Positions 20,681-62,175 of a DNA stretch of 64,000 bases are shown one piece after another. Origin of the DNA: an uncultured Candidatus Peribacteria bacterium (GTDB lineage: Bacteria; Patescibacteriota; Gracilibacteria; UBA1369; 2-02-FULL-48-14); assembly GCA_964441065.1 (NCBI GenBank), contig CAYTWD010000001.1, forward strand, positions 73,285 to 137,284, given 5' to 3'. Below the pieces are notes generated by a model. That model did no database searches, was not told the DNA's origin, and worked only from the letters and a program-made list of their open reading frames with translations. The number at the start of each line of letters is the position of its first letter. Positions within the stretch are counted from its first letter, which is position 1. The translations under genes and the position numbers were made by a program.

Positions 20681-20691
20681 TTTTGATTTTT

Positions 20692-39915: not shown

Positions 39916-40659
39916 ATGAATCAAAAACTGCTCGAAAAATTGGGAATGACCGCTCGTGAAGTTAAACTTTATCTAAAACTTTTGGAATTGGGTTCAAGCC
40001 CGGCAAACAACTTATCAAGACGTTTGGAAGAGAACAGGACTTCAACATACAGTCTACTTCAATCACTTCAAAAGAAGGGTTTTGTGACATACTCGCTCAA
40101 GCGAAACGTGAAATATTTTTACCCGATTGATCCGGGAATTCTTGTTGATCAATACGTCCACACTGCGAATAATCTTCAGTCCGCCCTTCCTGAACTGCTC
40201 GCTGTTTTTAATAAGTCCACCAACAAACCAAGAATTGCATTTTATGAAGGAGTGAACGGGATAAAACAACTTTGCGAGACGCTTCTTGAAGTACCCGGTT
40301 CCACCCGCTTTAGTTTTATGGGAGTTGATGAATCCACAATTCATCCGGAAATTAAAGAGTATTTTGAGACCGATTTTCTAAATAGACGAGTCGCCGCAGA
40401 TATTAAATATAAAGCGATTGTAACAGGTTTAATTCCCTTTGCTTCCGGCTACAAAAAAACTCATGAAGCTCAACTTCGCGAGCTGAAATGGGTCGATCCC
40501 AAAAAATTTCCAATGAATATTCAAATCGACATTTATCCTCACAATAAAGTTGCAATTTATTCTTACAATAAAGACGAAATGATGGGCATTGTTATTGAAC
40601 ACGAATCTTTCTACTCAACAATGAGATCGGTTTTTCAGATTGCGTGGAGTGGCCTTTAA
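39916..40659 (+). CDS. TrmB-family HTH transcriptional regulator (paralog 2 of 3)
   Basis: 247 aa. REVKLYLKLLELGSSPANNLSRRLEENRTSTYSLLQSLQKKGFV and FYEGVNGIKQL are present. Confidence 0.75.
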   Translation: MNQKLLEKLGMTAREVKLYLKLLELGSSPANNLSRRLEENRTSTYSLLQSLQKKGFVTYSLKRNVKYFYPIDPGILVDQYVHTANNLQSALPELLAVFNKSTNKPRIAFYEGVNGIKQLCETLLEVPGSTRFSFMGVDESTIHPEIKEYFETDFLNRRVAADIKYKAIVTGLIPFASGYKKTHEAQLRELKWVDPKKFPMNIQIDIYPHNKVAIYSYNKDEMMGIVIEHESFYSTMRSVFQIAWSGL

Positions 40660-41837: not shown

Positions 41838-42593
41838 TTATTCTCCCTCACCATAAAAGTACTTACCGTAAGTATTTGCAAGTGCTTCATATGCCCTATC
41901 AAACCCATCGTTTAAATCAACTTTACCACCTAAAATAATGCTTTCACCGTCTGTAACAAGCATAGGTATCCCACGTAAACCATGACCATATTGTGAAAAT
42001 CTTTTTTTAGATCCAACAAATCTACCTGATACATTCTCAGCATATTCAATTTCATCTTTAGCGATTGGTTTGCAAAGAAGAGCGCCTATATCAAGCGAAA
42101 TTTGTTTTGCGATTTTATCAGCCATATTTTTTGAGCCCACAAAAATTGTGAATATTTTCCCATCTTCAATATCTCCACCATTCATACATTTATGGCAGAT
42201 GTTATTATCAGTTAGATAATCAGAAACTTTCTGCACATCCTTAATTGCGACATTTAAATGTAATTTGTGGCCTACAGCTATATTTTTTTCATCTAAAAAT
42301 TCAGTAGTTTCACCTTTTTTCCCAAGATCAAACCTTCCATATGATTTAAGTTTTTCAGTCCATATTTTATCTTTAATCTTCCACTCCGACTTATTTTTTG
42401 GCAAGTCTGGATTTTCTTTACCATTAGAGTTTGGATATTGATCCTCAAGGTTTTGCAGTGTAGCCAATTTTGCTTTATATCTTGTTCTCCCAACAATGTT
42501 CTGAGTATTTTTTGGTACATCTAACCACCATCTCTTTTTTTCCGTTACAGGTTTCGGGCTTACTCTCTCCCACCATTTATCAACATTAGTCAT
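41838..42593 (-). CDS. Hypothetical protein with a KLHLNV...GKIFTIF motif pair
   Basis: 251 aa and soluble, 5 nt downstream of the ATPase gene. VGHKLHLNVAIKD ...(32 aa)... DGKIFTIFVGS recalls the GWK(L/I)H(V/I)S ... GKF(I/V)T(I/V)YP pattern I associate with HopA1 / LanKC-N lyase-like domains. This is from memory and unverified. Confidence 0.55.
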   Translation of the reverse strand: MTNVDKWWERVSPKPVTEKKRWWLDVPKNTQNIVGRTRYKAKLATLQNLEDQYPNSNGKENPDLPKNKSEWKIKDKIWTEKLKSYGRFDLGKKGETTEFLDEKNIAVGHKLHLNVAIKDVQKVSDYLTDNNICHKCMNGGDIEDGKIFTIFVGSKNMADKIAKQISLDIGALLCKPIAKDEIEYAENVSGRFVGSKKRFSQYGHGLRGIPMLVTDGESIILGGKVDLNDGFDRAYEALANTYGKYFYGEGE

Positions 42594-42598
42594 ATTTT

Positions 42599-44842
42599 CT
42601 AAATCAAAGGCATTTCAAACTCTGCGGCTTCTTCAATAACTTCATTCTTCGCCACAATCTCACCGGGTTCTTCAATTTTTCCTTCGTCCCATTTCTTCAA
42701 CATTTCTTCAACTTCTTCACGAGGATGGCAGTAGGCCGCGCGCGAAATTTCAATAATCTCACGAGTTTTATCTTCGGGATTATATTTGATGTCTAAAGTG
42801 CGACCGGAAAAGGCCTCGGAAAGTTCACCTTGCACAGACATTTTTGTATAAAATTCTCGAACCCCCAAGTTAATAATATCTCGAACATTGAAAATCGGAG
42901 TGTATTCTTCGGCAAGAATAACAGCATCTTCGGCACCCACACGGAAGTTCACAATTGTACCAACGTTACCAAAAACCGTTTTTCTAACAAGATCGGAAAG
43001 CTGACCAACATATTGGTGGGCAATCGTCATGTTCAATCTGTATTTTCTGGCTTCAGACAAAATCTCCGAAAAAGTATTTGTGGCAAAATTCTGGAACTCA
43101 TCCACGTAGAAATAAAAATCGCTACGTTCGTCTTCGCGCATGTCCGCACGAGCCATCGCCGCCTGATAAATTTTCGTGATAATCATGGCACCCACCAATT
43201 GAGCGTTTTCCTCACCAAGAAGCCCTTTTGAGACTTTCATGAGAAGAATTTTTTTGTTGTCCATTATGTCGCGAATATTGAAAGTATTCACCGGCTGACC
43301 GATAATATTTCGAATCATATTTGTTGAAACCAACTGTCCGACTTTATTCAAAAGCGGTGTGATCGCCTCGCTATCAAATTTTTCACTCCATCCGGCAAAT
43401 TCATTAACCCAGAAATTTTTAACAACGGAATCCTGAATCCTCGCCACAATTTTTTGACGGTAATTTTTATCGGAAAGCATTTTCAAAATCGAAAGCACAG
43501 TCGTGTTTGGTGAGTCTAGAAGCGCCAAAGTCGTGTATCGTAAAACGTGCTCCAATCGATCAGACCAGTTTCCACCGAAGAGTTTTTTGAAAATATCAAT
43601 GAAACCAATTGTGATCTGCATTTTGAATTTTTCATCAACTTTTTCGAGCGGATTAAAGGCTATAGGGAACTCAGTATCAGAAGGATCAAACAAAATCACG
43701 TCCTTCATTCGTTCCTCCGGAATCATTCTCAAAATGTTATCAACAAGATCTCCGTGCGGATCCAAAACACCAATTCCTTTTCCCGCTTTAATATCGGACT
43801 GAATCAAAAGTTCAAGCATTTTTGATTTACCGGTACCGCTCTTCCCCACAACATATAAATGTCTTCTTCTGTCTTCGCGCTTGATACCAAAGTGCTGAAA
43901 ATTGTTGTGATAATTCGTCATACCAAACATACAAACGTCTTGTCCGCCGGTCGGTAAATCCTTCGGTGGCTCATGTTTTTTCGCCATAACATGCACAACG
44001 TGTGGAACGTGATCCGCATTTGGAATATGAAAGAATGTCGCCAATTCGTGATCACTAACAATCGCGCCGTTATCAATATGTCGGCTTTGATATTCTCGCA
44101 AAAAAGCAGCTCCTTTTTTGACTTTTTCCAATTCAAAATTATTCGCGTCGGTTTTATTAAATTGAAAAAATGCTTTTGAAAGCGCTAGCAAATTCTTTCT
44201 TGCCTCATCTTCTTTATCTGAAACAGCGCCAAATCTAATTTGAACTTTAAAAGGTTCATGCTCCGATTTATGAATGAAAAGCGATTCCTCTTCTTTGTAA
44301 TATTCCGCTTTTTCTTTCATTCGCACGTAATTCTTCAATCGGAATCTTCTCAAAAATCTATTAAGTCTCATCCTGAATTTTCGCAAGAAATGATATTTCC
44401 AATCTTCATCAATCGGTACGGTTAAAATCTGCACCCAAGCATGATCATTTCTTCCCAATTTTGAAATCACAGAGAAAATTGAAGAAAGCGAATCCACTTC
44501 AAATTCATCGTATGCTTTGAAGGGATAAATATCGCTCATCGCGAATCTTGCGGTTGTTCCCAACAGGATATGTTTTTTGGGATCGTAAACTGTCGTGTAG
44601 TCTTTTACAGGTCTAATTTCCGCGTCAGGGTAGCTTGAATAAATCAAACCCTCCACAAGTTTTGTGATGTCCGGCTCGCAACCGATAAAGAAATATGTGT
44701 ACTGATTGTAACCAAAAAGTTCAAAAGATAAATGCTTGTGATGCGCAGTTTTATGCAAATTCTGCAAAAACTGTAGAAACAGACTTTCTTTTTTCGGATT
44801 TTCGGCCGTTCCCTGTGGGACTATTACATGTAAAAAATCCAT
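42599..44842 (-). CDS. Soluble VirD4/TraD-like (type IV coupling-protein-like, HerA/FtsK superfamily) P-loop ATPase
   Basis: 747 aa. Walker A is VVGKSGTGKSKML and Walker B is FYFYVDEFQNFAT. The arginine-finger-like region is TIAHQYVGQL. The N-terminal 300-aa domain has no transmembrane helices. Confidence 0.7.
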   Translation of the reverse strand: MDFLHVIVPQGTAENPKKESLFLQFLQNLHKTAHHKHLSFELFGYNQYTYFFIGCEPDITKLVEGLIYSSYPDAEIRPVKDYTTVYDPKKHILLGTTARFAMSDIYPFKAYDEFEVDSLSSIFSVISKLGRNDHAWVQILTVPIDEDWKYHFLRKFRMRLNRFLRRFRLKNYVRMKEKAEYYKEEESLFIHKSEHEPFKVQIRFGAVSDKEDEARKNLLALSKAFFQFNKTDANNFELEKVKKGAAFLREYQSRHIDNGAIVSDHELATFFHIPNADHVPHVVHVMAKKHEPPKDLPTGGQDVCMFGMTNYHNNFQHFGIKREDRRRHLYVVGKSGTGKSKMLELLIQSDIKAGKGIGVLDPHGDLVDNILRMIPEERMKDVILFDPSDTEFPIAFNPLEKVDEKFKMQITIGFIDIFKKLFGGNWSDRLEHVLRYTTLALLDSPNTTVLSILKMLSDKNYRQKIVARIQDSVVKNFWVNEFAGWSEKFDSEAITPLLNKVGQLVSTNMIRNIIGQPVNTFNIRDIMDNKKILLMKVSKGLLGEENAQLVGAMIITKIYQAAMARADMREDERSDFYFYVDEFQNFATNTFSEILSEARKYRLNMTIAHQYVGQLSDLVRKTVFGNVGTIVNFRVGAEDAVILAEEYTPIFNVRDIINLGVREFYTKMSVQGELSEAFSGRTLDIKYNPEDKTREIIEISRAAYCHPREEVEEMLKKWDEGKIEEPGEIVAKNEVIEEAAEFEMPLI

Positions 44843-44887: not shown

Positions 44888-46501
44888 TCAGTAAATTTCA
44901 TTCAAATAACATGCTTCACAATACACTTTTTCAGGTCTATCCCAAAGTTGCCTTGGTCTTCTTCTCGCCATTCTATCCAAATGCCTTTCATCAGGACATT
45001 TTCTTGGAATTGGCAAATTCATCTTCCTGTAAAATGCCAATTCTTGAGGAATAATTTTATATAATTTGCCGCTACTTTCACACTTTAAAATCTGCTTTGT
45101 GATTTCATCACCAACTTCAGTTATATTATCTTGCATATTCAAATAAGCTCCTTGGTAATTATTTACTTTATCATCTTCATGCCATTTATAACTGCGCGCC
45201 AAAGCCTCCTCTTTACTAAGTGGAAACCATTCATTCGCCAAACTTTCATTATATGCGAATGCGCTTAGACTTATTGGAAAAAACTCACCCCATTCGCCCG
45301 TTTTTTTAAGATGCTCAATAATTTGAGGCAACAGTTTTTCATATTCTTCTTTGCTGTATTGCTTATTCAAAATGCAATATTGCTTCTGTTTTAAACCCAC
45401 ACATCCGAAGCAGTTCTTTGTTGAAAAACAATGATCACAATAACTAAGATCCGCACAATTACTCCAACATAAATTACAAAATTTTAAGTTATAAATATCA
45501 TATCCACAGGCCTGACATTCATAAGTTTCACTTGCATTCGATCCCCAATAACTGTGATCCATCGAATTCTTAACCTTAACCTCCAAATTATTTGAATATT
45601 TCACGTCTTCGCAATCAAAACACTCAAAAATTTCCACACAATTTCTGGAATTATTTATATAATCACCGCTAACATTTTCATTCATTGTCCCATAGAAATT
45701 TTTCACAATCATCGATTTTTTCATTTCCATAAATTTTTCAACGGCATCTTTATAAGATTCATATGAACCCAAATTCAATTCTCTTTTAAATTTTTCATAT
45801 TCTTCTTTTGTAACTTGTTTATTAAAAATATGATATTCAACATTTTTTAAACCCCAAGAAAAAATACAATTTTTCACACCTATACAATTTTTTAAAAACA
45901 TTGAATCCGAGCAATTTCTACATTCTTCAGAGTAAATTAAGTTATAACAATACTGGCAATCCACTGTTTCGTAGCAGAGTTCATCATGCAGAGCATTCTC
46001 ATTATCTATACAATCTTTGCAAAAATTTATCCAAGAACCGTAATAACAATCTTCGCAATGATTTGTTGAAAAAACTAAATAACAATTTTTATTTCTACTC
46101 GCGCAATTACAATATTGTGAATTTTCCATTGGCTGTTGTTGTTGCAATGCCAACCTCGGAACCTTGTTTCTAAGCTCCTCATATTGTTCAAAAAAACTGC
46201 GAGAAAAATCAAAATCCATTCCGTGGCTTAGTGGATCCCACTTATCGCTCCACCACTCTTCAATATCGTAAACAGGATATGGTTTATCGGTAGACGCTGA
46301 AGAAATAATTTGCTTCCCGCTCAAATCACATTTTCTATGATAAAGATGTCTTTCATTTCTAAACGCCAATCTTCTCCGCATTCTTTCTTCCGGACACAAA
46401 GTTGGCAAAGGAACTCCCATTTTTTCATAAAAAGCCTGATCTTCCTCAGAAATAACGAACTCTTTTCCCGAAACGGCACATGTTTTTTTAATTGAAGGCA
46501 T
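44888..46501 (-). CDS. Cys-rich double-zinc-ribbon-capped family protein, paralog P1
   Basis: 537 aa with the family architecture. The N-terminal ribbon ligands are degenerate (CAVSGK, CPEER). The last zinc knuckle is deleted at the C-terminus (..LWDRPEKVYCEACY). Confidence 0.8.
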   Translation of the reverse strand: MPSIKKTCAVSGKEFVISEEDQAFYEKMGVPLPTLCPEERMRRRLAFRNERHLYHRKCDLSGKQIISSASTDKPYPVYDIEEWWSDKWDPLSHGMDFDFSRSFFEQYEELRNKVPRLALQQQQPMENSQYCNCASRNKNCYLVFSTNHCEDCYYGSWINFCKDCIDNENALHDELCYETVDCQYCYNLIYSEECRNCSDSMFLKNCIGVKNCIFSWGLKNVEYHIFNKQVTKEEYEKFKRELNLGSYESYKDAVEKFMEMKKSMIVKNFYGTMNENVSGDYINNSRNCVEIFECFDCEDVKYSNNLEVKVKNSMDHSYWGSNASETYECQACGYDIYNLKFCNLCWSNCADLSYCDHCFSTKNCFGCVGLKQKQYCILNKQYSKEEYEKLLPQIIEHLKKTGEWGEFFPISLSAFAYNESLANEWFPLSKEEALARSYKWHEDDKVNNYQGAYLNMQDNITEVGDEITKQILKCESSGKLYKIIPQELAFYRKMNLPIPRKCPDERHLDRMARRRPRQLWDRPEKVYCEACYLNEIY

Positions 46502-48144
46502 TAGTAAACCAATTTTAAATAACAGTCGTCACAATATACTTTTTCTTGGCGTTCAGGTTCAAAAGTGCTTTCTATTTCAATCTGACAACCATAACATTTT
46601 CGTTTCCAAAGGCTTTGAGGGTTTCTCATTGAAAGTCTGTCTTTGTGCCTTTGATTTGGACATCGCAGAGGTATTGGCAACTTCATTTTTCTATAAAACT
46701 CCAACTCTTGTGGAATTAATTTATAAAGTTTCCCGCTTACTTCACATTTTAAAATTTGCTTTAAAATTTCGTCGCTAACTTCATTAATATTTTTTGGAAT
46801 TTCAGCATGTGGGCCTTGATATGAACTAATTTCATCCTCATCTTTCCAATGATAACCCAACTTTAAGGCCTCCTCTTTTTCCAGTGGAAAATATTCATTT
46901 GCAACAGTCTCGTTATATCCAAATGCAGATTTATTAATTGGAAAAAACTCACCCCATTCGCCGGTCTTCTTCATATGATCAATAATTCGTGCCACAAGTT
47001 TTTCGTATTCTTCTTTTGAATATTGTTTATTTAAAATGCAATACTCTGAATTTTTCATTCCACTGCATCCAAATAAGTTTTTTGAATTATGACAATTATG
47101 AGAGTAGAAACTATCAGATAGTTTATTGCAAAACATTGAGAAAAGCAGATTTCTATTTTGATATGCCGCCAAATATTCATAACAAAGTTCATTCTCCTCA
47201 GTGAAATTATTGTCGTAACAATCCTTCAAATCAACCACTTGCATACAATAGGCAACGTCTTCACATTTATCTGTAAAATACGAATTTTTAGCATTTTTTG
47301 ACTGAAAAATATAATTTCCGCTTACATTTTCCACATTTCTACTCTGCATAAATCTGTGAGGGATTTCCAATTTTAATTTCTGCAACTCAGTTTTTAATTT
47401 TTGAGTGACTTCGGGATCGCACAAATTCAATTTTCTTTTAAACTCCTCGTAATCTTCTTTACTTAATTGCTTGTTAAAAACGCAATATTGCTTTTTTCTA
47501 AGACCCGCGCATCCAATGCAGTCACTGCATCCTTGCAAATCATAACAATAAATCAGATGATCTGAAGTGTGACAGTCTTGGCAGTAAAAACACTCGTAAA
47601 GTTTTCTTGAATCTACACATTCATAAGAATACTGACATTCTCGAACGACTAATGTATCAAGGCATTCAAGTGAGTAATAAGGGGAACCATAATAACATTT
47701 GTCAGAATATACGGATCCAAAAATCAAATAAGAATCTTTCACATTACCAACGTAATTACAAAAACTGCTATTTTCCGAATTCCATACTGACAGTGCAAGT
47801 TGCGGCACGTCTTGATAAAGTTCCTTAAATTGTTCAAAAAAAGGTCGATTAAAATCAAAATCACGCCCGTAATCGAGAGGATCCCACTTGTCACTCCACC
47901 ATTCATCAACATCATAAACGGTAATCTCACCGTCTTCCGAATAATTTGAAATTAAACTTTTTCCACTTAGGCCGGATTTTCTGTGATAAAGACTGCGTTC
48001 GTTTCTATGTGCGTATCTTCTCCGTCTTCTCTCCTCCGGACACAAAGTTGGCAATGGAACTCTTACTTTTTCATAAAAAGCTTGATCCGCATCTGTGATC
48101 ACGAACTCTTTTCCTGAAACGGTACATGTTTTTTTAATTTCCAT
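46501..48144 (-). CDS. Cys-rich double-zinc-ribbon-capped family protein, paralog P2
   Basis: 547 aa, 30 Cys by hand count. A TAATG junction joins it to P1, and it starts 3 nt after the csaA stop. Confidence 0.8.
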   Translation of the reverse strand: MEIKKTCTVSGKEFVITDADQAFYEKVRVPLPTLCPEERRRRRYAHRNERSLYHRKSGLSGKSLISNYSEDGEITVYDVDEWWSDKWDPLDYGRDFDFNRPFFEQFKELYQDVPQLALSVWNSENSSFCNYVGNVKDSYLIFGSVYSDKCYYGSPYYSLECLDTLVVRECQYSYECVDSRKLYECFYCQDCHTSDHLIYCYDLQGCSDCIGCAGLRKKQYCVFNKQLSKEDYEEFKRKLNLCDPEVTQKLKTELQKLKLEIPHRFMQSRNVENVSGNYIFQSKNAKNSYFTDKCEDVAYCMQVVDLKDCYDNNFTEENELCYEYLAAYQNRNLLFSMFCNKLSDSFYSHNCHNSKNLFGCSGMKNSEYCILNKQYSKEEYEKLVARIIDHMKKTGEWGEFFPINKSAFGYNETVANEYFPLEKEEALKLGYHWKDEDEISSYQGPHAEIPKNINEVSDEILKQILKCEVSGKLYKLIPQELEFYRKMKLPIPLRCPNQRHKDRLSMRNPQSLWKRKCYGCQIEIESTFEPERQEKVYCDDCYLKLVY

Positions 48145-48147
48145 AAT

Positions 48148-48480
48148 TTAAAATAATTTTGAACCCAAAGGCACTTCTTTATCCGGTTGCGCCAAAATAA
48201 CATCACCATTTTCATCAGGAAATCCAAGGGTCAGAACTTCGGAAATGAATGGACCGATTTGACGAGGTGGAAAGTTGGTGACGCCCATAACCATTCTCCC
48301 AATTAAATTCTCTTTTGAATAATGTTTTGTTATTTGAGCGGATGATTTTTTCAAACCAATTTCAGCCCCAAAATCGATCGTAAGTTTATAAGCCGGCTTT
48401 CTGGCCTCGGGGAAGCTTTCAACTTCCACAATTCGCCCCGCATGTATGTCTAATTTATTGAAATCTTCAATCGTCGTCAT
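48148..48480 (-). CDS. csaA: CsaA-type tRNA-binding domain protein (Trbp111/EMAPII-like OB fold)
   Basis: 110 aa. FNKLDIHAGRIVEVESFPEARKPAYKLTIDFG.EIG.KKSSAQIT......LIGRMVMGVTNFPPRQIG.F.SEVL.LG aligns along its whole length with B. subtilis CsaA as I remember it. Confidence 0.8.
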   Translation of the reverse strand: MTTIEDFNKLDIHAGRIVEVESFPEARKPAYKLTIDFGAEIGLKKSSAQITKHYSKENLIGRMVMGVTNFPPRQIGPFISEVLTLGFPDENGDVILAQPDKEVPLGSKLF

Positions 48481-48551
48481 AATTATTTTTTAATAGAGCC
48501 AAATTATAGCATTTCTTGTAAAATTGTACATAATTGGAGCTTGTAATTTGT

Positions 48552-48569
48552 ATTATAACAGGTTATAAT
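48552..48569. promoter_or_regulatory. Inverted repeat ATTATAAC-ag-GTTATAAT in the divergent csaA / TrmB-like intergenic region
   Basis: Perfect 8-bp arms, 27 nt upstream of the TrmB-like ATG at 48596. The right arm also reads as a -10-like TATAAT. Confidence 0.35.
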
Positions 48570-48595
48570 AACTGTAGAAACTTTTTTACAACAAT

Positions 48596-49354
48596 ATGCT
48601 TTCTGAAGAATTAATTAGGCTCGGACTGTCAAAAGAAGAGGCGAAAGTCTATTTAACTGTCTTGGAATTGGGAGGCTCTTTTGCAAGCGCGATTGCCAGA
48701 AAATCGAATACGCCGCGTGTAAATTGTTATTATATTTTGGAAAGCCTGAGAGAGAAGGGACTGATAACTTCAAATTTAAAAGGAAATGTAAAATTCTTTG
48801 TTGCTGAACCGCCTCAAGTTTTTGTGAATCAAGTTGAAGAAAAATTTATTCGAGCGCAGAAAATTCTTCCCGAATTGCTATCAGTAACTAACGCTCTCGC
48901 CTTCAAGCCAATTATCCGTTCTTATGAAGGCCTTGACGGTATTAAACAAATTTTTGAGCAGACTCTTGAGGCAAAATCAGAAGTGCTGGGCTACACAAAT
49001 CTTGAAGCGCTGGCTAATCTTTTGCCTGATTACTTACCCGGATATATTAAAAAAATGGTGAAAAAAAGAATAAAGATTCGTCTACTTTCACCTTCAACCG
49101 ATGCCGCAAGAAAATTTATTAAAAAATTCTATCCGAAAAATTTCCCCGAAGAATTAGTCGAAATTTTATTTGTAAACCCAAATGAATTCGCCTTCGAAAA
49201 TCAAATCTCAATTTACGATAACTTCGTCGCAATCATGTCTCTTAATCCGCAGGAATTGATGGGTGTCCATATGCAATCAGGTGTATACGCGCGTACTCAA
49301 AAGGCGATTTTTGACCTTTCTTGGCTAGGCGCGACTTCATTCGTGGCTCAGTAA
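48596..49354 (+). CDS. TrmB-family HTH transcriptional regulator (paralog 3 of 3)
   Basis: 252 aa. EEAKVYLTVLELGGSFASAIARKSNTPRVNCYYILESLREKGLI and SYEGLDGIKQIF are present. Confidence 0.75.
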   Translation: MLSEELIRLGLSKEEAKVYLTVLELGGSFASAIARKSNTPRVNCYYILESLREKGLITSNLKGNVKFFVAEPPQVFVNQVEEKFIRAQKILPELLSVTNALAFKPIIRSYEGLDGIKQIFEQTLEAKSEVLGYTNLEALANLLPDYLPGYIKKMVKKRIKIRLLSPSTDAARKFIKKFYPKNFPEELVEILFVNPNEFAFENQISIYDNFVAIMSLNPQELMGVHMQSGVYARTQKAIFDLSWLGATSFVAQ

Positions 49355-51000
49355 ACCTCCGCCAAATAACAAGATTCACAGTACACTTTTTCAGGTCTAT
49401 CCGGCGAATAACTGGTCTCAATTTCCTTCGAGCATTTCGCACAATTTCTTGTCCAAGTTCTATTTGGATTTCTGGAATGAATTCGCATTTCATTTCTAGT
49501 TTCAGGAGCAAAATGAGGGATTGGAATACCAATTTGTCTATATAATTTCAACTCTTGTGGAGTAATTCTGTAAGGTCTTCCGGTTTTTTCACATGTAAAA
49601 GTTTGAGACAAAATTTCATCGCTTACATCGTGAATTGAATCAGGAATATTCTGTGTTTTTATGTCACGAATTTCTTCATCATGCCATTTTAAACCCTCAG
49701 CTAAAATCTCTTCTTTTGTTCTAGGAACAAAATCTTGAGCAACAGTTTCATTATAGGCAAAATAAGAATATTTCATTGGCAAAAATTCTCCCCATTCACC
49801 GGTTTTTCGCATATGTTCAATTATTCTTGCTTTCAAAATTTCATATTCCTCTTTTGAATATTGTTTATTAAAAATACAGTAATTTAAATGATGCATATTT
49901 GAGCATCCAAAAACATTATTACAGTATGCGACGGTGTCTGAATAAAGAACATTGCTTCCGTACCAAATGAATGAAGAGAACGCGCCATTTGTAACTCCCG
50001 GAACTCCAATCACCTCATATTCCAACTCTGATTTATGACCAATATGACTACAACTCATAGCGTCTTTCAAAACCCATCCGCCCAAAAATACATCCTTTAA
50101 ATCTTCAGCAGGACCATAAATATCGAAACAATTTTCACAATTTTTATCATCTTTAAGTTTATCGCCAACGCAATTTTCACAATTTAAAATATCCGCGTAT
50201 AAAACGGGTACGCTTAGTTTAAATTTATTAAATTCCTCTCGCATTTTTTCAACACCGCTCCAAGAATCAAGTCGCATTTCTTTTAATTTTGAAGAGTATT
50301 CTTCCGGTGAATATTGCTTATTGAAAATTTGATATTTTTCCCCACGAAGCCCAACGCATCCAATACAATTTTCACAACTTCTACAATCAAATAAAAATGC
50401 AGAATCGCGGCAATTATGGCTATTTTGAGCGTATTTTAAGTTGTAACAATGCGAACAATCTATACAATCGTAACTTAATTCAGCATGATTAACCCAGTAC
50501 AAATCGGAAACGTCTCTACACCAAAAACAAAAAACTGAATTTAATGCGTCTTCATTAAAATCTCCACCGAAAACCAAGTAAGAATTTTTATTGTCTGTTG
50601 TTAAATTGCAATATTCACTATTCTCACCGTTAGAATTCAAAAGTGAGAGATGAGGAACGGCTTTTCGCAACTCATCAAATTGTTCAAAAAAAGGCCTGTT
50701 AAAATCAAAATCTCGCCCGTAATCCAGTGGATTCCACTTATCGCTCCACCAAACATCTTGCGCGAGAACTTTGATTTTTTTATCGGGTGAATAAATCGAA
50801 ATTATTTCTTTACCTGTTAAATCGCATTTATCTTTGTAAATTTTCCTCTCATTTCTGTGTGTAAATCGACGTTGATGTCTGTGCTCAATACACAAATTCG
50901 GCAGAGGAAATCCGCCCATTTTCTTCAAATGTTCCTGCTCCCATTCATTCACAATGAATTCTTTTGAGCAAATTCGGCAGTTTTGTTTGATTTCTTTCAT
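49348..51000 (-). CDS. Cys-rich double-zinc-ribbon-capped family protein, paralog P3
   Basis: 550 aa with the family architecture. The N-terminal ribbon is CRIC...CIEH, and the first C-terminal ribbon is degenerate (CEKTG ... FAPETR). Confidence 0.8.
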   Translation of the reverse strand: MKEIKQNCRICSKEFIVNEWEQEHLKKMGGFPLPNLCIEHRHQRRFTHRNERKIYKDKCDLTGKEIISIYSPDKKIKVLAQDVWWSDKWNPLDYGRDFDFNRPFFEQFDELRKAVPHLSLLNSNGENSEYCNLTTDNKNSYLVFGGDFNEDALNSVFCFWCRDVSDLYWVNHAELSYDCIDCSHCYNLKYAQNSHNCRDSAFLFDCRSCENCIGCVGLRGEKYQIFNKQYSPEEYSSKLKEMRLDSWSGVEKMREEFNKFKLSVPVLYADILNCENCVGDKLKDDKNCENCFDIYGPAEDLKDVFLGGWVLKDAMSCSHIGHKSELEYEVIGVPGVTNGAFSSFIWYGSNVLYSDTVAYCNNVFGCSNMHHLNYCIFNKQYSKEEYEILKARIIEHMRKTGEWGEFLPMKYSYFAYNETVAQDFVPRTKEEILAEGLKWHDEEIRDIKTQNIPDSIHDVSDEILSQTFTCEKTGRPYRITPQELKLYRQIGIPIPHFAPETRNEMRIHSRNPNRTWTRNCAKCSKEIETSYSPDRPEKVYCESCYLAEVY

Positions 51001-52634
51001 TGTATTTCAGCCAGATAACATTTTTCACAATACACTTTCTCTTTTCGTTCTGGAGCATATGTTGTTTTAATTTCTACTCCACATTTCAAGCAATTTCGAT
51101 CCCAAAGTTTTCGTGGGTTTTCAAGAGAAAGTCTTTCTTTGTGTCTGCATTCAAAGCATTTTTTTGGTATTGGTAAGCCCATTTTTCGGTAGAATTTTAA
51201 TTCTTGCGGAATAATTTTGTAATTTTTATGACACACAATACAGGCCAAAATTTCGTTTAAAATATTGTCACCAACTAAACCAATATCATTTGGAATTGAA
51301 TAAGTTTGCGCTAAATAAGATTTTTTATCTTCATCACGCCATTGCATATTTCTGCTCAAAGCTTCATCCTTGCTCAGCGGATAAAAATCGTTAGCTTTTG
51401 ATTCGTTGTATCCAAAAACACTTAATTCGAAAGGAAAAAATTCACCGTATTCATTTTTGCTAAGCATTTTCTCTTTTATTTTCACCAACATTTTTTTGTA
51501 CTCATTTTCACTATATTGTTTGTTTAATATGCAGAATTTATTTCCTTTCAAACTCATGCAACCAAAGGAATCGTGTGAGCTTTGGCAATTATCACAATAT
51601 TCAAGATTACTCGACTGGTAACAAAGATTGCAGAATTTACTAAAAGTTAGATCGATTGCCGCCTGCGCTTCATATAAACATTCACCGTTAGCAATTCTTG
51701 TATTGTCCATTGAGTCTTTCATTTCCATACAGTCCAAAAGATACCTGCCGTCTTCCACGTTCCATACATTATAGCAGTGACTCGCATTCTTTGAATTCAC
51801 AATGTAATTACCGGTACAATTTTCGCTGTTTTTATCCCAAAAATATTTCACAGGTATTTCAAGCCGCAGTTGTTTATATTTTTCTAAAAACTCATTTCTA
51901 AAATCTGGATTAGAATTTAATTTTTTTAGAGTTTTTTCATATTCTTCTTTTGAAACCTCTGCATTTAAAATCATAAATTCTTTTCTTCTCAAGCCAGCGC
52001 AACCGATCAAATTATTTGAAGCACGACAGTCAAAGCAAAGATATGAAAAAGTTAAATTCAGGCAGTTTTCCAGATAAGAGGAGTTATAACAATTATCGGA
52101 ATCGTTACAAAAGTAACAATTTTCAACATTTGAACACATGTAAAGATCCATACTGTCCTTACATATTTGGGCGAAGTCGACATAATAAACATCCTCACAT
52201 ATTCTTAATGAATTCCCCATATAACAATTTCTATTTTTCCCACTATGAACCGTGTAATCCGAATTTTCGCTCATGGTTTGATACATCGCAATTCTAGGTA
52301 CTTTCGACCGCATTTCAGCAAATTGTTCAAAAAATGGTCTGTCGAAATCAAAATCAATTCCGTATTTAATCGGGTCAAATTTATCACTCAAAAAACAATC
52401 TTTGCAGTACACCGGAAAGGGCTTATCACTCGAATAAATTGAAATAATAGTATTTTGGCACATGTCACAAGAACGTTTGTAAAAAATTCTGTCATTTCTA
52501 AAAACCAATCGTCTTTGATTTCTACAATCCGGGCAAAGTGACGGAGTGGGAACTTCAAATTTCTTAAAAAATTCAAAATCCCCAGATTCAAGATTGAAGT
52601 TTTGCCTGCACACTTTACAGCTTTTTGTTTCCAT
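50997..52634 (-). CDS. Cys-rich double-zinc-ribbon-capped family protein, paralog P4
   Basis: 545 aa, 37 Cys by hand count. All four terminal CxxC...CxxC ribbons are intact. ATGA junction with P3. Confidence 0.8.
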   Translation of the reverse strand: METKSCKVCRQNFNLESGDFEFFKKFEVPTPSLCPDCRNQRRLVFRNDRIFYKRSCDMCQNTIISIYSSDKPFPVYCKDCFLSDKFDPIKYGIDFDFDRPFFEQFAEMRSKVPRIAMYQTMSENSDYTVHSGKNRNCYMGNSLRICEDVYYVDFAQICKDSMDLYMCSNVENCYFCNDSDNCYNSSYLENCLNLTFSYLCFDCRASNNLIGCAGLRRKEFMILNAEVSKEEYEKTLKKLNSNPDFRNEFLEKYKQLRLEIPVKYFWDKNSENCTGNYIVNSKNASHCYNVWNVEDGRYLLDCMEMKDSMDNTRIANGECLYEAQAAIDLTFSKFCNLCYQSSNLEYCDNCQSSHDSFGCMSLKGNKFCILNKQYSENEYKKMLVKIKEKMLSKNEYGEFFPFELSVFGYNESKANDFYPLSKDEALSRNMQWRDEDKKSYLAQTYSIPNDIGLVGDNILNEILACIVCHKNYKIIPQELKFYRKMGLPIPKKCFECRHKERLSLENPRKLWDRNCLKCGVEIKTTYAPERKEKVYCEKCYLAEIQ

Positions 52635-54218
52635 TTAGTATACAGAAGCCAAATAACACGTCTCGCAGTATACAATCTCGGGTCTGTCTGGGGAATAGCT
52701 GGTTTTTATTTCTGTTCCGCATTTTGCGCATGCGCGGGACCAAAGTTTTCTGGGATTTTTCCAACGTAATAATTCTTTTTCTCTGCATTCGTGACAGCAA
52801 GTCGGATTTTGTTGGCCTAATTTATCGTAAAGTGCTTTTTCCTGCTTGATTATTTGGAATTTTTTACCGCATTCAACACAATTTAATGCGCTGATTTCAT
52901 TTGGAATTATATTTACATCTTTCCACGCATAATTTTTTGCCAAACATTCTTCTTTTGATAAAGTAAAATAATCTTGAGCGATACTTTCGTTATATGCGTG
53001 AGGTGAAATAAAAGCCGGGAAGAACTCGCCATATTCTCCGGTTTTTCGCATGTGTTCAATTATTTGCAAACGCAATTTTTCATATTCTTCTTTTGAATAT
53101 TTTTTGTTCAAAATGCAGTATTCGTTTTTTGTATGGAAACCGTCACAGCCAAACGAATTGGATAGATAAAAACATGAATATAAATACTCTGAAAAAGGTG
53201 AGGCGCAAGTACAATACGAGAATTTTGTCATATAATTTTTTTCACCGCCGCTACACATTTCGTAACAAAGTTCTATTTCTTTATCGTGCATGCACATATC
53301 CATGCAATCTTTAACACCCGCGCATTCCACCAAATATTTTGAATCCTGAACCTCAAAGCTATCAAAAGACTCATAAGTATTTTTACAATTATATAAGTAA
53401 TCTCCGGTTGAATTTTCACAATTGAACTGAACCACGGCGCGTTTTGGAAGTATTGAAGAAAATGCCATAAATTCCTTAAGAATTTCATCGGGATTTTTTG
53501 ATTTGTATTCATTCATAATTTTCTCAAATTCTTCCTTGCCAACTTCTTTATTTTTAAAACAGTAATTTTTATTTCTGAGCCCGAAACACATAAAAGAATT
53601 TTGCATGTTTGAACAATCCTCCAAGTATGATGAAAATGAACAAGATTTGCAATTTAATAAAAAGCCGGAAAAATAACAGGAATCACAATTTGTTGAATTA
53701 AAAACCAGCTCGCATTTGTTAAGAATATTACTGTTAATACAATCTTTGCAGTTCTGACTTTTTCTTGTGTAAATACAGCCTTCCGATAAATATGTGCCTG
53801 GACTCATGTATGTATTTTTTGAGAAAGCCAAAAATGAATTATAGTCTGAATTTTCATTATTTAATTGAAGCAAATTGGCTTTTGGGAGAGCATTCATTAA
53901 CTCTTTAAATTGTTCAAAAAAAGATCGATTAAAATCAAAATCTCGGCCGTAACTTTCAGGATTCCATTTTTCACTCCACCAACAATTTGTGCAGTAAACG
54001 GGAAAAACCGTATCAGCATCAAAAAAAGAAATCATGTTTTTTTTGCAAAAATCACATTCTCTTTTGTACAGATTTTTCTCGTTTCTCATCATCAACCTTC
54101 TTTGAAGTCGGCATTCTCCGCAAAATTTTGGCTCAGGAACGTTAATTTTTTCATAAAAAGAAGAATCTCCTTCTGTAATTTCAAATTCTCTCGAGCAATT
54201 TTTACAATTTTTAATCAT
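52635..54218 (-). CDS. Cys-rich double-zinc-ribbon-capped family protein, paralog P5
   Basis: 527 aa. All four terminal ribbons are intact. Its stop codon directly abuts the P4 start (TAAATG). Confidence 0.8.
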   Translation of the reverse strand: MIKNCKNCSREFEITEGDSSFYEKINVPEPKFCGECRLQRRLMMRNEKNLYKRECDFCKKNMISFFDADTVFPVYCTNCWWSEKWNPESYGRDFDFNRSFFEQFKELMNALPKANLLQLNNENSDYNSFLAFSKNTYMSPGTYLSEGCIYTRKSQNCKDCINSNILNKCELVFNSTNCDSCYFSGFLLNCKSCSFSSYLEDCSNMQNSFMCFGLRNKNYCFKNKEVGKEEFEKIMNEYKSKNPDEILKEFMAFSSILPKRAVVQFNCENSTGDYLYNCKNTYESFDSFEVQDSKYLVECAGVKDCMDMCMHDKEIELCYEMCSGGEKNYMTKFSYCTCASPFSEYLYSCFYLSNSFGCDGFHTKNEYCILNKKYSKEEYEKLRLQIIEHMRKTGEYGEFFPAFISPHAYNESIAQDYFTLSKEECLAKNYAWKDVNIIPNEISALNCVECGKKFQIIKQEKALYDKLGQQNPTCCHECREKELLRWKNPRKLWSRACAKCGTEIKTSYSPDRPEIVYCETCYLASVY

Positions 54219-54389: not shown

Positions 54390-55658
54390 ATGAAAGTTTT
54401 ACTACTTGCGGCAGGCAGAAGCAAAAGAGCAAAACCGATAGAAGACAAAAATTTTCTTCGATTCTGCGGGAAATATTTAATTAAACATCAACTTGAAGCT
54501 TTAAAATCAGCCGGTTTTGAAGACATAATTGTGATTGGAGGCGCGCACAATTTGGAAAAACTTTCAAAAGTGGCTGAGAAATATAATACAAAAGTTGTTG
54601 AACAGAAAAATTTGGAGGAAGGTATGGCTGGCGCGATTTTGTCTGTTGAGGATTTGGTTGATAATGAAGATTTGTTTATTGTAAGCGGAAATGACGTGGT
54701 TGATGACAGCGCTTACGAAGCAATGAAAAATGTTTCCGGTGCCGATTCTTATTTGTTGGCTTATCAAGTTTCTGAATATTTTCCTGGCGGTTATTTAAAA
54801 ATCGATTCAGAAATAATTACCGGAATTATTGAGAAGCCCGGAGCAGGAAACGAGCCCTCGAATTTAGTGAACTTGGTTCTGCATTTACACAAAAACCCCA
54901 AAAGATTATTTGAAGTTTTGAAAGAAGTATCTTCTGAAAAAGACGATAGGTATGAACTTGCTTTGGATGCCTTGATGGGAGAAAGAAAATTTGTAGCTGT
55001 TCCATATAATGGGTTCTGGCAGGCTTTAAAATTCCCACAACATGTTTTGAACTTGAATAAATTTTTCTTATCTAAATTGGAATACTCCGTTGCAAGCGAT
55101 GCGGAAATTTCCAAAACCGCGGTAATTAATGGCAATGTTGTAATTGAAAGTGGCGTCAAGATTTTTGATCACGCGGTAATTCAAGGCCCAGCGTACATTG
55201 GAAAAGATTCCATTGTTGGAAATAACGCCTTGCTTAGGGAATCTTCCATTGGAAAACGCTGCGTTATCGGTTTTAACACCGAAGTCGCTCGTTCCTATGT
55301 TGGCGATGATACTTGGTTTCACTCAAATTACATTGGAGACAGCGTGATTGGAAATAATTGTGGATTTGGCGCGGGAGCGATTTGTGCGAATTTGCGCTTG
55401 GATGAAAAAGAAATAGGTGAAACTAAAATGAATAAATTAGGTGCGGTTTTAGGCGATAATATTAGAATCGGCGTTAATACAAGTTTGATGCCGGGAATTA
55501 AAATCGGATCGAATACAATGATTACTTCAGGTTTGGTTATTACCCAGGATATTGAAACCGACAAATACGTTAGTGGTAAAACGGAACTAAAAATTGACGA
55601 TAATAAAGCCACTATTGACCCAGAGGCCAGAAACGCTATGATGCGTAAGCTTAAATAA
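54390..55658 (+). CDS. Sugar-phosphate nucleotidyltransferase fused to a left-handed beta-helix (hexapeptide) domain (GlmU / G1P-nucleotidyltransferase-like)
   Basis: 422 aa. N-terminal VLLLAAGRSKRAKP (G-x-G-x-R). The C-terminal half has hexapeptide repeats (IGKDSIVGNNALLRESSIGKRCVIGFNTEV...). Confidence 0.7.
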   Translation: MKVLLLAAGRSKRAKPIEDKNFLRFCGKYLIKHQLEALKSAGFEDIIVIGGAHNLEKLSKVAEKYNTKVVEQKNLEEGMAGAILSVEDLVDNEDLFIVSGNDVVDDSAYEAMKNVSGADSYLLAYQVSEYFPGGYLKIDSEIITGIIEKPGAGNEPSNLVNLVLHLHKNPKRLFEVLKEVSSEKDDRYELALDALMGERKFVAVPYNGFWQALKFPQHVLNLNKFFLSKLEYSVASDAEISKTAVINGNVVIESGVKIFDHAVIQGPAYIGKDSIVGNNALLRESSIGKRCVIGFNTEVARSYVGDDTWFHSNYIGDSVIGNNCGFGAGAICANLRLDEKEIGETKMNKLGAVLGDNIRIGVNTSLMPGIKIGSNTMITSGLVITQDIETDKYVSGKTELKIDDNKATIDPEARNAMMRKLK

Positions 55659-55664
55659 GAAAAT

Positions 55665-56342
55665 ATGAAAAAATCAATTGCAGCAATAGGGCTTTTATCA
55701 CTACTTTTGACATCTTGCGGCGGTCAAAAATATGAAGCTAGCGCGCAAGCTTACGAAATCCTTCCGGCGGACGATGCAACAGGTTGGCCTGTTGTTAAAA
55801 TGAATTCCGTTTTGAGCGAAAATTTGTACTTTAAAATGCGTTATGATCCAAAAGGTTGGGAGATTAAAGATTCAAATGGGAAATACATCACAAATTTATA
55901 TTTTAGAGACGTTAATTATAAAGGTGATGCCTGTGTGGTTTTACCGGGAACAAAAGGTTACAAACTTGAAAAAGAATATTCGGTTTCTCAATGGGCTTAT
56001 AAGAGCGATCGAACTTCAGGAATTGATTATGAATTCAAAAATCCCGTAACAGGAATTATTGAAATGCGAGTTTTTGAAACTGCAAGTAACGGGGAAGCGC
56101 TTCCATCTGCATTATTTGAATTACACTTGCCAACAGACGGCCAAGATCAAGCAAAATGTTATGACGATTATCAACAGTTAATTGGTACTTACTCTTTTGA
56201 TCATTACGACGGAACGCCGGAAGAACTAAAGGCGATTTTGCAAAATCTCGAAGAAATAAAAAAGCAAAATGAGGAAGCTGAAAAAGCAAAGGAACTTGAA
56301 CAATTCATTCCAAAAACCGATACTGGATCTACTGCGAACTAG
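55665..56342 (+). CDS. Lipoprotein, function unknown
   Basis: 225 aa. Lipobox: MKKSIAAIGLLSLLLTSCGG. Confidence 0.6.
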   Translation: MKKSIAAIGLLSLLLTSCGGQKYEASAQAYEILPADDATGWPVVKMNSVLSENLYFKMRYDPKGWEIKDSNGKYITNLYFRDVNYKGDACVVLPGTKGYKLEKEYSVSQWAYKSDRTSGIDYEFKNPVTGIIEMRVFETASNGEALPSALFELHLPTDGQDQAKCYDDYQQLIGTYSFDHYDGTPEELKAILQNLEEIKKQNEEAEKAKELEQFIPKTDTGSTAN

Positions 56343-56614
56343 AACTCAAACTCAACATCTCCGTTGACTTTGCACTGGCAACCCAGTCTTTGTTCAGGGC
56401 TCGCGCTTCTAATTGAAAGTGTAGCCTCTTCTTGCTCAGTTCTCGGGCTTAAGTTTTCCATTCCGGAGTTGATTTGAATCAAACAAGTAGAACAAATTCC
56501 ATCTTCACAACCAAAAGGAATTCCAAGATTATTTTGAGTCGCTACATCTTTTAATTTTGCTCCGGCCTCACATTCCACTGATATTGAAAGACTTTTATTT
56601 GTTACTTTTGGCAT
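56339..56614 (-). CDS. 2Fe-2S ferredoxin
   Basis: 91 aa. CEDGICSTC followed by ...LGCQC gives the spacing C-x4-C-x2-C...C. Confidence 0.7.
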   Translation of the reverse strand: MPKVTNKSLSISVECEAGAKLKDVATQNNLGIPFGCEDGICSTCLIQINSGMENLSPRTEQEEATLSIRSASPEQRLGCQCKVNGDVEFEF

Positions 56615-56615
56615 A

Positions 56616-57485
56616 TTATAAATATGAATTAATGATTGGATCTATGTCTATATTTTCAATTAAATGGTCTACCAGCGGCTTATCTTTTAACATTAAAAGT
56701 TCTTCTTCATAAAGCCAACGATCTTCTTTGTAATAAACTCCAACCGGAATTTTTTCACCCCATTCTTCGGTTAATTTGAAGGCAGCCATTCTATCTGTCG
56801 GATCGTGATTTTCAGCATCCAGCTTATGAATTCTCTGTTGATACCATTGATAAGTATTTACTTTATTGAAAGTCACACAAGGTTGCAAAACATCGATTAG
56901 TGAAAATCCTTTATGTTGGATTCCTTCGATTATTAATTTTTTGAGATACATAATATCTCCGGCATAACCGCGCGCGATAAATGTCGCACCTGCGGAAAGA
57001 GCCAAGGAAAGTGGACGAATCGGTACTTCAATAACTCCTTCCGGTGTCGATTTTGTTTTAAAACCGTGATCGCTGGTAGGTGAAGTTTGCCCCTTAGTTA
57101 AGCCGTAAACTTGGTTATTTTGCACAATATAAGTCACATTGTAATTTCTTCGCGAAGAGTGAATTAAATGCGCGACTCCAATTCCGTAACCGTCGCCGTC
57201 TCCACCAATAATTATCACATTCATTTTGTGATTTGCCATTTTCATTGCGGTTGCGACGGGCAGCGCTCGGCCGTGCAATGAGTGAAATCCATAAACTTTC
57301 ACGAGGTGAGGAGTTTGAGATCCGCATCCGATTCCGGAAACAATCATTGTTTCTTCGGGATTTATTTTCAGTTCAAACAGTGCTTGTTTTAAAGCCACAA
57401 GAATTCCAAAATCACCACAACCGGGGCACCAATTACATTTGGAACCCGTGTCTAAATCCGTTAATAATTTTAAATTGTTTGACAT
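56616..57485 (-). CDS. 2-oxoacid:ferredoxin oxidoreductase, beta (TPP-binding) subunit
   Basis: 289 aa. NWCPGCGDFGIL and GGDGDGYGIG are present. Confidence 0.85.
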   Translation of the reverse strand: MSNNLKLLTDLDTGSKCNWCPGCGDFGILVALKQALFELKINPEETMIVSGIGCGSQTPHLVKVYGFHSLHGRALPVATAMKMANHKMNVIIIGGDGDGYGIGVAHLIHSSRRNYNVTYIVQNNQVYGLTKGQTSPTSDHGFKTKSTPEGVIEVPIRPLSLALSAGATFIARGYAGDIMYLKKLIIEGIQHKGFSLIDVLQPCVTFNKVNTYQWYQQRIHKLDAENHDPTDRMAAFKLTEEWGEKIPVGVYYKEDRWLYEEELLMLKDKPLVDHLIENIDIDPIINSYL

Positions 57486-59481: not shown

Positions 59482-59489
59482 CCCGCATA

Positions 59490-60333: not shown

Positions 60334-60334
60334 A

Positions 60335-60583: not shown

Positions 60584-60693
60584 ATTAAGTTTTTAGAGTA
60601 CTTTAAGTGTACATCATAAAACCAAAAAAACAATAGTTGCTGACCCAAGACAAAATAATTGACAGATATATAATAAAATGTTATAAAATAACT

Positions 60694-62172: not shown

Positions 62173-62175
62173 GTC

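Follow-up and report, generated by a model that had tools for sequence, protein, structure and literature searches.

A stretch of 64,000 nucleotides from an uncultured Candidatus Peribacteria bacterium (contig CAYTWD010000001.1, positions 73,285 to 137,284; hereafter the window, whose numbering is used throughout) harbors an array of five paralogous genes, P1 to P5, for large cysteine-rich proteins (Table 1). An earlier reading of the sequence, the original prediction, had placed five co-directional open reading frames (ORFs) here, and all five lie at the coordinates it claimed, on the minus strand. The junctions are likewise as described, namely TAATG (a 1-nt overlap), ATGA (a 4-nt overlap) and TAAATG (abutting genes), and the Cys counts made by hand for P2 and P4 (30 and 37) are exact on recount. 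The proteins share one architecture at pairwise identities of 37-49%, and this architecture is internally duplicated: the N-terminal zinc-ribbon module aligns with the C-terminal one (hhalign probability 99.8%, E 4.5e-29) and the first Cys block with the second (99.8%, E 1.5e-28), whereas a control alignment of ribbon with block gives a probability of 1%. The module order is thus ribbon, block, block, ribbon. The P4 protein deposited at NCBI has 488 aa instead of the 545 aa of the ORF, with the start placed at Met58 and the first zinc ribbon lost; since the longer N-terminus is kept in homologs, the public annotation appears truncated.

Table 1. Genes of the cysteine-rich family, modules of the reference protein P4 and associated genes in the window (HMM, hidden Markov model).
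Feature	Coordinates	Strand	Product	Basis
P1	44888-46501	minus	537 aa, 34 Cys	ORF and family HMM
P2	46501-48144	minus	547 aa, 30 Cys	ORF and family HMM
P3	49348-51000	minus	550 aa, 28 Cys	ORF and family HMM
P4	50997-52634	minus	545 aa, 37 Cys	ORF; AlphaFold2 reference
P5	52635-54218	minus	527 aa, 41 Cys	ORF; family HMM E 8e-189
P4 N-ribbon module	52350-52634	minus
P4 solenoid block 1 (predicted)	51990-52298	minus
P4 solenoid block 2 (predicted)	51555-51830	minus
P4 C-ribbon module	51000-51248	minus
Core-only sixth member	19688-20680	plus	330 aa, 10.3% Cys, two blocks, no ribbons	family HMM E 7.7e-73
Stand-alone double zinc-ribbon module	20692-20973	plus	93 aa, isoelectric point (pI) 8.9	family HMM E 1.5e-27
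VirD4/TrwB-type P-loop ATPase, soluble (type IV coupling protein-like)	42599-44842	minus	747 aa	Pfam
TrmB-like winged helix-turn-helix regulator, inside array	48596-49354	plus	252 aa	PF01978 E 2.2e-14
Second TrmB-like regulator, distal operon end	39916-40659	plus	247 aa	PF01978 E 1.5e-13
Third TrmB-like regulator	18737-19522	minus	261 aa	PF01978; phmmer match to other two
CsaA/Trbp111-type tRNA-binding-domain protein	48148-48480	minus	110 aa	PF01588; NF007495 and TIGR02222 above cut-offs
p251, 5 nt downstream of ATPase	41838-42593	minus	251 aa	no library match
Major facilitator superfamily (MFS) transporter, last gene of packed run	40656-41828	minus		PF07690; same order in locus L009

The tandem set described by the original prediction is present but not complete. 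A sixth, split member of the family was overlooked elsewhere in the window, and the system, although real, extends beyond the coordinates first given for it. The sixth member consists of a core-only gene and of a stand-alone ribbon gene that starts 11 nt past it and encodes four CxxC-type knuckles. The pair (19688-20973) is divergent from a TrmB gene (18737-19522) and convergent with alaS (20970-23018). Core-only proteins form a conserved subfamily with dozens of clusters of ~330 aa, and some relatives of ~425 aa carry one fused ribbon module; at another locus (L086), an 85-aa stand-alone ribbon gene lies beside the ATPase gene. These natural split forms show that the modules are separable, yet kept together. 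A GenBank entry named "Epidermal growth factor receptor" (Peregrinibacteria GW2011_GWA2_47_7) is a core-only fragment, likely misannotated because of its Cys-rich composition.

Judged by their sequences, the end modules belong to the zf_Tbcl and zf_Tbcl_2 treble-clef types, the first ribbon of each module resembling zf_Tbcl (PF13451) and the second zf_Tbcl_2 (PF23477)/TIGR04272. Terminal zf-trcl-like matches at most had been expected, and in the window proteins the matches are indeed sub-threshold and confined to the ends: 13.4-22.6 bits for PF13451 against a gathering threshold of 24, with P1 unmatched, and 21-23 bits for PF23477/TIGR04272 against cut-offs of 27/36 bits. At the level of the family, 22 of 61 members match PF13451 at E <= 0.01 (best E 3e-9) and 43 of 61 match PF23477 at the same cut-off (best E 2e-9). 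The ribbon motif with all its Cys, attributed earlier to every paralog, holds for P4 and P5 (4 + 4 CxxC each) and fails for P1-P3. Only P4 and P5 keep all eight knuckles intact, equivalent to four predicted zinc sites each. P3 retains about two sites in partly degenerate ribbons, P2 retains four Cys in the last ribbon only, and P1, which has no CxxC at the N-terminus and whose last ribbon is shortened by 17 aa, has essentially lost its ribbon ligands. The two-CxxC ligand set of the PF13451-type ribbon is accordingly found at both ends of P4 and P5 and in part in P3; in P1 and P2 the knuckles at this position read C-x2-S and C-x2-E. Across the family these ligands are 92-100% conserved in the N-terminal copy and 54-93% in the C-terminal copy. 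The CxxC-x17-CxxC spacing is exact in P2-P5 (C515/C518 and C536/C539 in P4), and its ligands are 98-100% conserved across the family. The C-terminal ending, given as EKVYC, does not hold for P5, which reads EIVYC. The ribbon modules also contain conserved Arg clusters (R38, R41, R42, R46, R497, R501), and charge is segregated along the protein: family-wide, the mean net charge is +2.2 and +7.2 for the two ribbon modules vs. -7.0 and -6.7 for the two blocks. A Foldseek search of BFVD with the full P4 model finds only phage "putative zinc-ribbon" proteins, aligned on the ribbons.

The ~340-residue core between the ribbons (residues ~100-440) has no match in Pfam, NCBIfam or PADLOC, in the five window proteins, in 61 full-length members or in 69 core-only members; this silence of the core had been predicted. 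Precomputed matches from a newer Pfam release comprise only PF13451 and PF23477. Searches of the PDB by sequence or by fold give no match to the core at E <= 0.001, and no confident profile or structural match of the central blocks, which had been named as the outcome that would speak against novelty, was obtained. With the full-length profile, the best PDB match is to LIM domains on the last ribbon (E 0.025); with the core-only profile, the best match on the core is to the MLL CXXC domain (E 0.004), accompanied by a weak match to the Cys-rich region of PriA. The marginal sequence matches to LIM, CXXC, PriA and the Tenebrio molitor antifreeze protein (TmAFP) are probably compositional.

Cysteine makes up 5-10% of the residues (mean of 38 Cys per protein), and its spacing, computed on the cores of 261 family members, bears out a Cys ladder far beyond chance: up to a separation of at least 36 residues, Cys pairs at distances divisible by 3 are overrepresented 2- to 4-fold (z = 35-90), and pairs at any other distance are underrepresented (z = -10 to -27). 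In one phase of the alignment, small residues (C/S/A/T/V/G) account for 71-78% of positions, Cys for 28-40% and D/E/N for ~5%; the remaining two phases contain at most 1% Cys, one with 38-40% D/E/N and the other rich in aromatic and aliphatic residues. Core-only proteins have CxxC-rich rungs, with up to four lattice Cys per coil. Any single core Cys is conserved in 20-97% of sequences, the usual substitutes being Ser, Ala, Thr or Val. With such free replacement by small residues, core Cys behave more like inward packing positions than like obligatory metal ligands. The blocks are most simply read as a narrow solenoid with three residues per side and coils of ~12 residues, a structure that is at present a prediction.

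Structural models are consistent with this. The AlphaFold2 model of P4 is confident as a whole, with a predicted local distance difference test score (pLDDT) of 83, a predicted template modeling score of 0.84, and ribbons and helical linkers above 90; the ribbon-free core-only model has a pLDDT of 75. The core-only model has strictly periodic strands (E--E--E-- pattern in DSSP) that repeat every 12 residues. Neither model has a Foldseek match in the PDB at E <= 0.001. All 47 of the weak matches of the core-only model (best E 0.024), including AlgE4, AlgG, tailspikes, TmAFP and TBCC, are right-handed beta-helices. The template modeling (TM) scores are ~0.1 by query and reach 0.26 by the 84-residue TmAFP target, so that these matches support a fold class only, not homology. 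Of the two structures originally proposed for the ladders, a beta-solenoid is the one that AlphaFold2, Foldseek and the Cys lattice favor, and a metal-cluster scaffold is not. No signal peptide, transmembrane segment or hydrophobic N-terminus was found in the family proteins, which are therefore taken to be cytoplasmic. Long members (583-808 aa) contain no informative domain fusion.

The family is very widespread. One family search returned 5,148 proteins at E <= 1e-3, and an exhaustive profile search of 50%-identity clusters returned 6,085 at E <= 1e-3 and 2,411 at E <= 1e-30; lengths are mostly 540-600 aa among the top 150 matches listed, and at least 562 relatives occur in GTDB species genomes. 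The best 78 loci are nearly all from Patescibacteria (Peribacteria, Peregrinibacteria, Gracilibacteria and Abawacabacteria, with some Paceibacteria, Nomurabacteria, Staskawiczbacteria and Minisyncoccia). Rather than being ubiquitous in unrelated genomes with no conserved neighborhood, the family is thus concentrated in one group, where genes for TrmB and a VirD4-like ATPase recur beside it. Two copies fall outside this distribution. In a Bdellovibrionota metagenome-assembled genome, one full-length member (locus L028, 10052-11695, E 9e-201) lies on a 3.26-Mb contig; the genome has a guanine-plus-cytosine content of ~58% and the family gene ~52%, and the neighbors include neither TrmB nor the ATPase. 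This copy may represent a horizontal acquisition by a predatory lineage. A member 52% identical to P1 occurs in a bin labelled Candidatus Micrarchaeota UBA10214 (locus L008, 9995-11656), which could reflect mis-binning or real transfer between episymbionts. No plasmid sequence matches the family and the single phage match is weak and limited to the ribbon region, so a mobile-element origin was rejected.

The family is maintained in chromosomal arrays. Loci of ~20 kb carry 1-12 copies, with at least four copies in 36 of 84 loci, and a single metagenome-assembled genome contains ~19 matching ORFs over two contigs (L020 and L041). Copies within a locus are nearly as distant from one another (median identity 41%, 95th percentile 49%) as those from different loci (median 38%); one within-locus pair is at 60% or more and none reaches 80%, and on this ground recent amplification, gene conversion and dosage were rejected. 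The original prediction had argued for a dosage- or diversity-dependent function; with copies that are old and ~40% identical, in sets that turn over by slow birth and death, dosage is unlikely and diversity is the more plausible of the two. Gene order in the closest genome (L009) follows that of the window: P5 (75% identity), P4 (72%), an extra copy, P3 (75%), TrmB, two copies (~50%), the ATPase, p251 and the MFS transporter. Clear orthology is limited to this genome and copies elsewhere are approximately equidistant, and a fixed multi-subunit set with universal one-to-one orthologs was therefore discarded. The surroundings in the window are those of an ordinary chromosome (FtsW/RodA, AlaRS, MutL, PurH, POR). 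Across Peribacteria (L001, L085 and the window, 54390-63105) the position of the array is syntenic, with serine dehydratase, 2Fe-2S ferredoxin and NTP-transferase/hexapeptide genes nearby, and POR/2-oxoacid:ferredoxin oxidoreductase genes are also close to the array in L001 and the window. This synteny points to vertical inheritance rather than to a mobile island. In L086, toxin-antitoxin-like genes (Gp49/HTH and ParE-like, 4905-5535 and 11907-12415) are found among family members and the ATPase gene.

The family is genetically coupled to one much better conserved ring ATPase of the VirD4/TrwB type that lacks a membrane anchor, and its arrays are punctuated by TrmB genes. This follows from a neighbor survey in which 1,140 genes from 81 family-anchored loci were clustered without prior assumptions. 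Two clusters stand out, TrmB-like regulators of ~250 aa (34 of 81 loci, 51 genes) and the ATPase of ~745 aa (19 of 81 loci, 24 genes); the next-commonest cluster occurs in 7 of 81 loci. The linkage is also seen in reverse, as all four ATPase homologs chosen by ATPase similarity alone have 2-6 family genes nearby (family HMM), and ATPase paralogs are interspersed among the family genes of L016, L065 and L070. The window ATPase passes the Pfam thresholds for T4SS-DNA_transf (PF02534, 39 bits against 20.1), TrwB_AAD_bind (PF10412, 27.9 against 20.5) and TraG-D_C (PF12696, 23.1 against 22), and falls far below the cut-offs of the NCBIfam equivalog models for type IV coupling proteins (T4CPs). Its Walker A and B motifs read GKSGTGKS and YFYVDE. 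No transmembrane anchor is detected (maximum of 1.0 in a 19-residue Kyte-Doolittle window, no window above 1.6), and homologs carry DUF8128 (PF26449) at the N-terminus, where T4CPs have the membrane anchor. The 120 listed ATPase homologs are 61-97% identical, mostly 61-85%, whereas listed family homologs fall to ~40-45%.

In the window, the ATPase gene belongs to a tightly packed minus-strand operon (CsaA-like, P2, P1, ATPase, p251, MFS; gaps of 3, -1, 45, 5 and 9 nt). TrmB-like regulators are usually divergent from a sub-array, and the gene at 48596-49354 diverges from the CsaA-P2-P1-ATPase operon. The three TrmB-like genes score 50.8, 53.5 and 34.1 bits against a PF01978 cut-off of 25.6. A shared operator was sought in the intergenic regions next to the TrmB genes, where no inverted repeat in common was found and promoter-like matches are at background (51 found vs. 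50 expected). The CsaA gene, 3 nt upstream of P2, is also located inside an array in Gracilibacteria (L019) and in no other locus. The basic protein p251 (pI 8.9) has no match in Pfam, NCBIfam, PADLOC or the PDB, and jackhmmer finds it only in L009; being limited to that genome, it was dismissed as a third conserved part of the system. In L003 and L085 the p251 position is taken by unrelated proteins of 228-273 aa. Among 30 neighboring window ORFs scanned with Pfam, with about a dozen ORFs of at least 150 aa outside the scan, there is no VirB4, VirB6 or relaxase, and no channel family of a type IV secretion system (T4SS), virB4 or relaxase recurs among the neighbors of the 81 loci, which agrees with the literature on these ATPases (PMC12102498). 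Farther away, four plus-strand ORFs without a Pfam match (2756-6094, 9404-10933, 10943-11602 and 60637-62172, of 1112, 509, 219 and 511 aa) adjoin genes for a 1071-aa tetratricopeptide repeat protein (6170-9385) and a Beta_helix-domain protein (11586-12506). Together these genes may constitute a cell-surface gene cluster.

We are inclined to place these proteins in the cytoplasm, as specificity adaptors or as partners of an exapted coupling-protein ATPase, and not among exported cargo. The reading that we tentatively prefer is that the paralogs are alternative clients of the soluble VirD4/TrwB-type ATPase. In this view they would dock to the motor and/or bind nucleic acid through their conserved ribbon and linker ends, as constant handles; the solenoid surfaces would constitute a variable recognition part through which one motor could acquire many specificities, and the local TrmB regulators would select the sub-array to be expressed. 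Counted in support are the architecture with its duplication, the lattice, the solenoid prediction, the charge segregation, the localization and the arrays, as well as the linkage from both sides, the contrast in conservation between ATPase and family, the interleaving, the modularity and the published suggestion that the T4CPs of Patescibacteria may have been exapted (PMC12102498). Other observations weigh against it. The ATPase is found in just 19 of the 81 family-anchored loci, many of which are truncated by a contig end or by the 10-kb flank; 24 loci carry just one copy, and neither TrmB nor the ATPase lies near the one from Bdellovibrionota. The solenoid blocks exceed the ribbons in variability only to a moderate degree (entropy 1.84-1.96 vs. 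about 1.6 bits), and their model confidence is moderate, with a pLDDT of 60-70 in the Cys blocks of P4 and a maximum of ~90, across much of block 1, in the core-only model. The argument for a link between client and motor is drawn from gene neighborhood. A bolder version of the proposal, which we regard as rather improbable, takes the core to be a hitherto unseen cytoplasmic fold: a "tripeptide-lattice" beta-helix in which up to four Cys per 12-residue coil line the lumen as stacked metal-thiolate sites, with the arrays acting as interchangeable specificity subunits that re-program an exapted, membrane-free ATPase.

The strongest competitor keeps the ATPase and changes the destination of the paralogs. 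They would form a diversified effector repertoire that the VirD4-like ATPase passes to a T4SS for delivery into host cells, where they might act as acidic DNA-mimic solenoids. Positively charged C-terminal signals are common on VirB/D4 substrates, and the C-terminal module is strongly basic here (mean charge +7). The paralogs are also fast-diverging and multi-copy in episymbiotic lineages, and the operon contains a homolog of the CsaA-type "export-related chaperone" together with an MFS gene, although CsaA is restricted to two loci. T4CP genes typically adjoin the genes of their substrates, such as relaxases (PMC12102498). The same 2025 survey, however, counts 5,713 VirD4-like T4CPs in Patescibacteria of which only 148 are near virB4, and reports t4cp as non-essential in Ca. 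S. epibionticum, where T4SS genes are essential (PMC12102498). Moreover, the ATPase has no membrane anchor, a T4SS channel family is absent from the scanned and recurring neighbors, and both termini are compact zinc-ribbon folds in a high-confidence model, a poor fit to a channel that depends on unfolding. Delivery into hosts is unlikely, though far from negligible.

Other explanations dispense with the motor. The proteins could be autonomous regulators or nucleoid factors that bind DNA or RNA, or mimic DNA, and act through their basic ribbons, the ATPase linkage being incidental. The basic charge and conserved Arg clusters of the ribbons, the acidic solenoids with their pentapeptide-repeat-like logic, the weak resemblance of the core-only profile to MLL CXXC (E 0.004) and the PriA Cys-rich region and the tRNA-binding-domain gene of the operon are all compatible with this. 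On the other hand, the PDB similarities are borderline and probably reflect composition, P1-P3 stay intact genes despite having lost most ribbon ligands, and the linkage to the ATPase is observed from both directions and in distant lineages, which makes nucleic acid binding of this independent kind an improbable account. More doubtful again is a metal or redox reservoir that buffers zinc, iron or thiols and whose copies are kept for capacity. The sheer Cys content of the family, the lattice Cys of the core-only coils and the unusually Cys-rich proteomes of Peribacteria (PMC4736985) would suit such a reservoir. Most core Cys, however, are not conserved, being present in 20-90% of sequences, and are swapped for Ser, Ala, Thr and Val in a packing-like manner, identities of ~40% with many conserved non-Cys motifs argue for a specific rather than a bulk function, and conservation extends to specific regulators and to an ATPase partner. 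The Cys-rich proteins of Ca. Peribacter were considered as possible family members and rejected, as they measure 580-3,860 aa and, by the signal peptide predicted for most of them, would be secreted (PMC4736985).

Defense against phages or mobile genetic elements, by diversified solenoid sensors joined to a HerA/FtsK-superfamily ATPase, is very improbable: the ATPase has weak PADLOC matches to mad8 (E 1e-10) and HerA, the arrays are diversified as is typical of sensors and the winged helix-turn-helix regulators are faintly similar to Csa3, but the Cys-rich proteins have no PADLOC match, a nuclease or any other effector domain is missing and does not recur nearby, the ATPase is as highly conserved as a core gene, and the locus has a syntenic chromosomal setting of housekeeping genes and is not a variable island. 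Whatever weight remains beyond the five readings falls to something so far unimagined.

Literature searches found no mention of DUF8128, PF13451, PF23477, zf_Tbcl or TIGR04272, and neither a survey of protein families in the candidate phyla radiation (CPR) nor a Gracilibacteria metaproteome paper mentions the family. It is real, very widespread, structurally unusual and, as far as the tools used can see, undescribed. The original prediction is supported and can be widened to a conserved neighborhood of three parts, namely the family, TrmB regulators and the ATPase. Patescibacteria/CPR represent a large share of bacterial diversity, with genomes of ~1 Mb and mostly uncultured members, and the family can occupy a striking fraction of such a genome (six genes per 64 kb here). 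The survey cited above reports VirD4-like ATPases in thousands of Patescibacteria genomes, remote from any T4SS and without an explanation, and its authors raise exaptation for other functions (PMC12102498). The linkage between array and ATPase offers a concrete genomic partner for at least the DUF8128 subset of these orphan VirD4-like ATPases, and if the bolder version with interchangeable specificity subunits is true, it would explain what thousands of orphan T4CP genes do in Patescibacteria. Among cytoplasmic proteins, the predicted Cys-lined solenoid with its three-residue lattice would be structurally out of the ordinary, and it is a clear target for structural and metallo-biochemistry.

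Several known systems share individual features with the family. The zf_Tbcl, zf_Tbcl_2 and TIGR04272 families present the same ribbon type, here at the protein ends; they cover only ~170 of ~545 residues, their own function is uncharacterised, and the window proteins differ from them by scores below the gathering thresholds and by the loss of most ligands in P1-P3. T4CPs (VirD4/TrwB/TraD) provide the precedent for an ATPase that is genetically tied to client proteins which could set its specificity. In Legionella, the coupling protein DotL works with the zinc-binding or adaptor partners DotN, IcmS and IcmW. In contrast to T4CPs, the ATPase of the window has no membrane anchor and no T4SS or relaxase genes nearby among the ORFs scanned, and its partner proteins are unrelated in sequence to known adaptors or effectors. 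The pentapeptide-repeat DNA mimics MfpA/Qnr are, like the predicted core, acidic quadrilateral-type cytoplasmic solenoids with a small or hydrophobic inward lattice; with five residues per side instead of three, and no sequence or profile similarity, they are a conceptual analogy only. Right-handed beta-helices (AlgE4, AlgG, phage tailspikes, pectate-lyase-like proteins, NosD) represent the fold class of all the Foldseek matches, but the predicted coils of the family are much narrower, with no Pfam Beta_helix match and no evident carbohydrate-active site. The nearest analogue is TmAFP (1ezg/1l1i), a Cys-braced right-handed beta-helix with coils of ~12 residues and a small inward residue at every third position. 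Matches of TmAFP to the family are non-significant (E 3-9, TM score 0.26). TmAFP is secreted and braced by disulfides, whereas the family proteins have no signal peptide and are cytoplasmic; its T-C-T ice-binding ladder is absent from the family rungs, whose outward faces are acidic, Asn-rich and aromatic. The resemblance looks like convergence, not homology, of two narrow solenoids.

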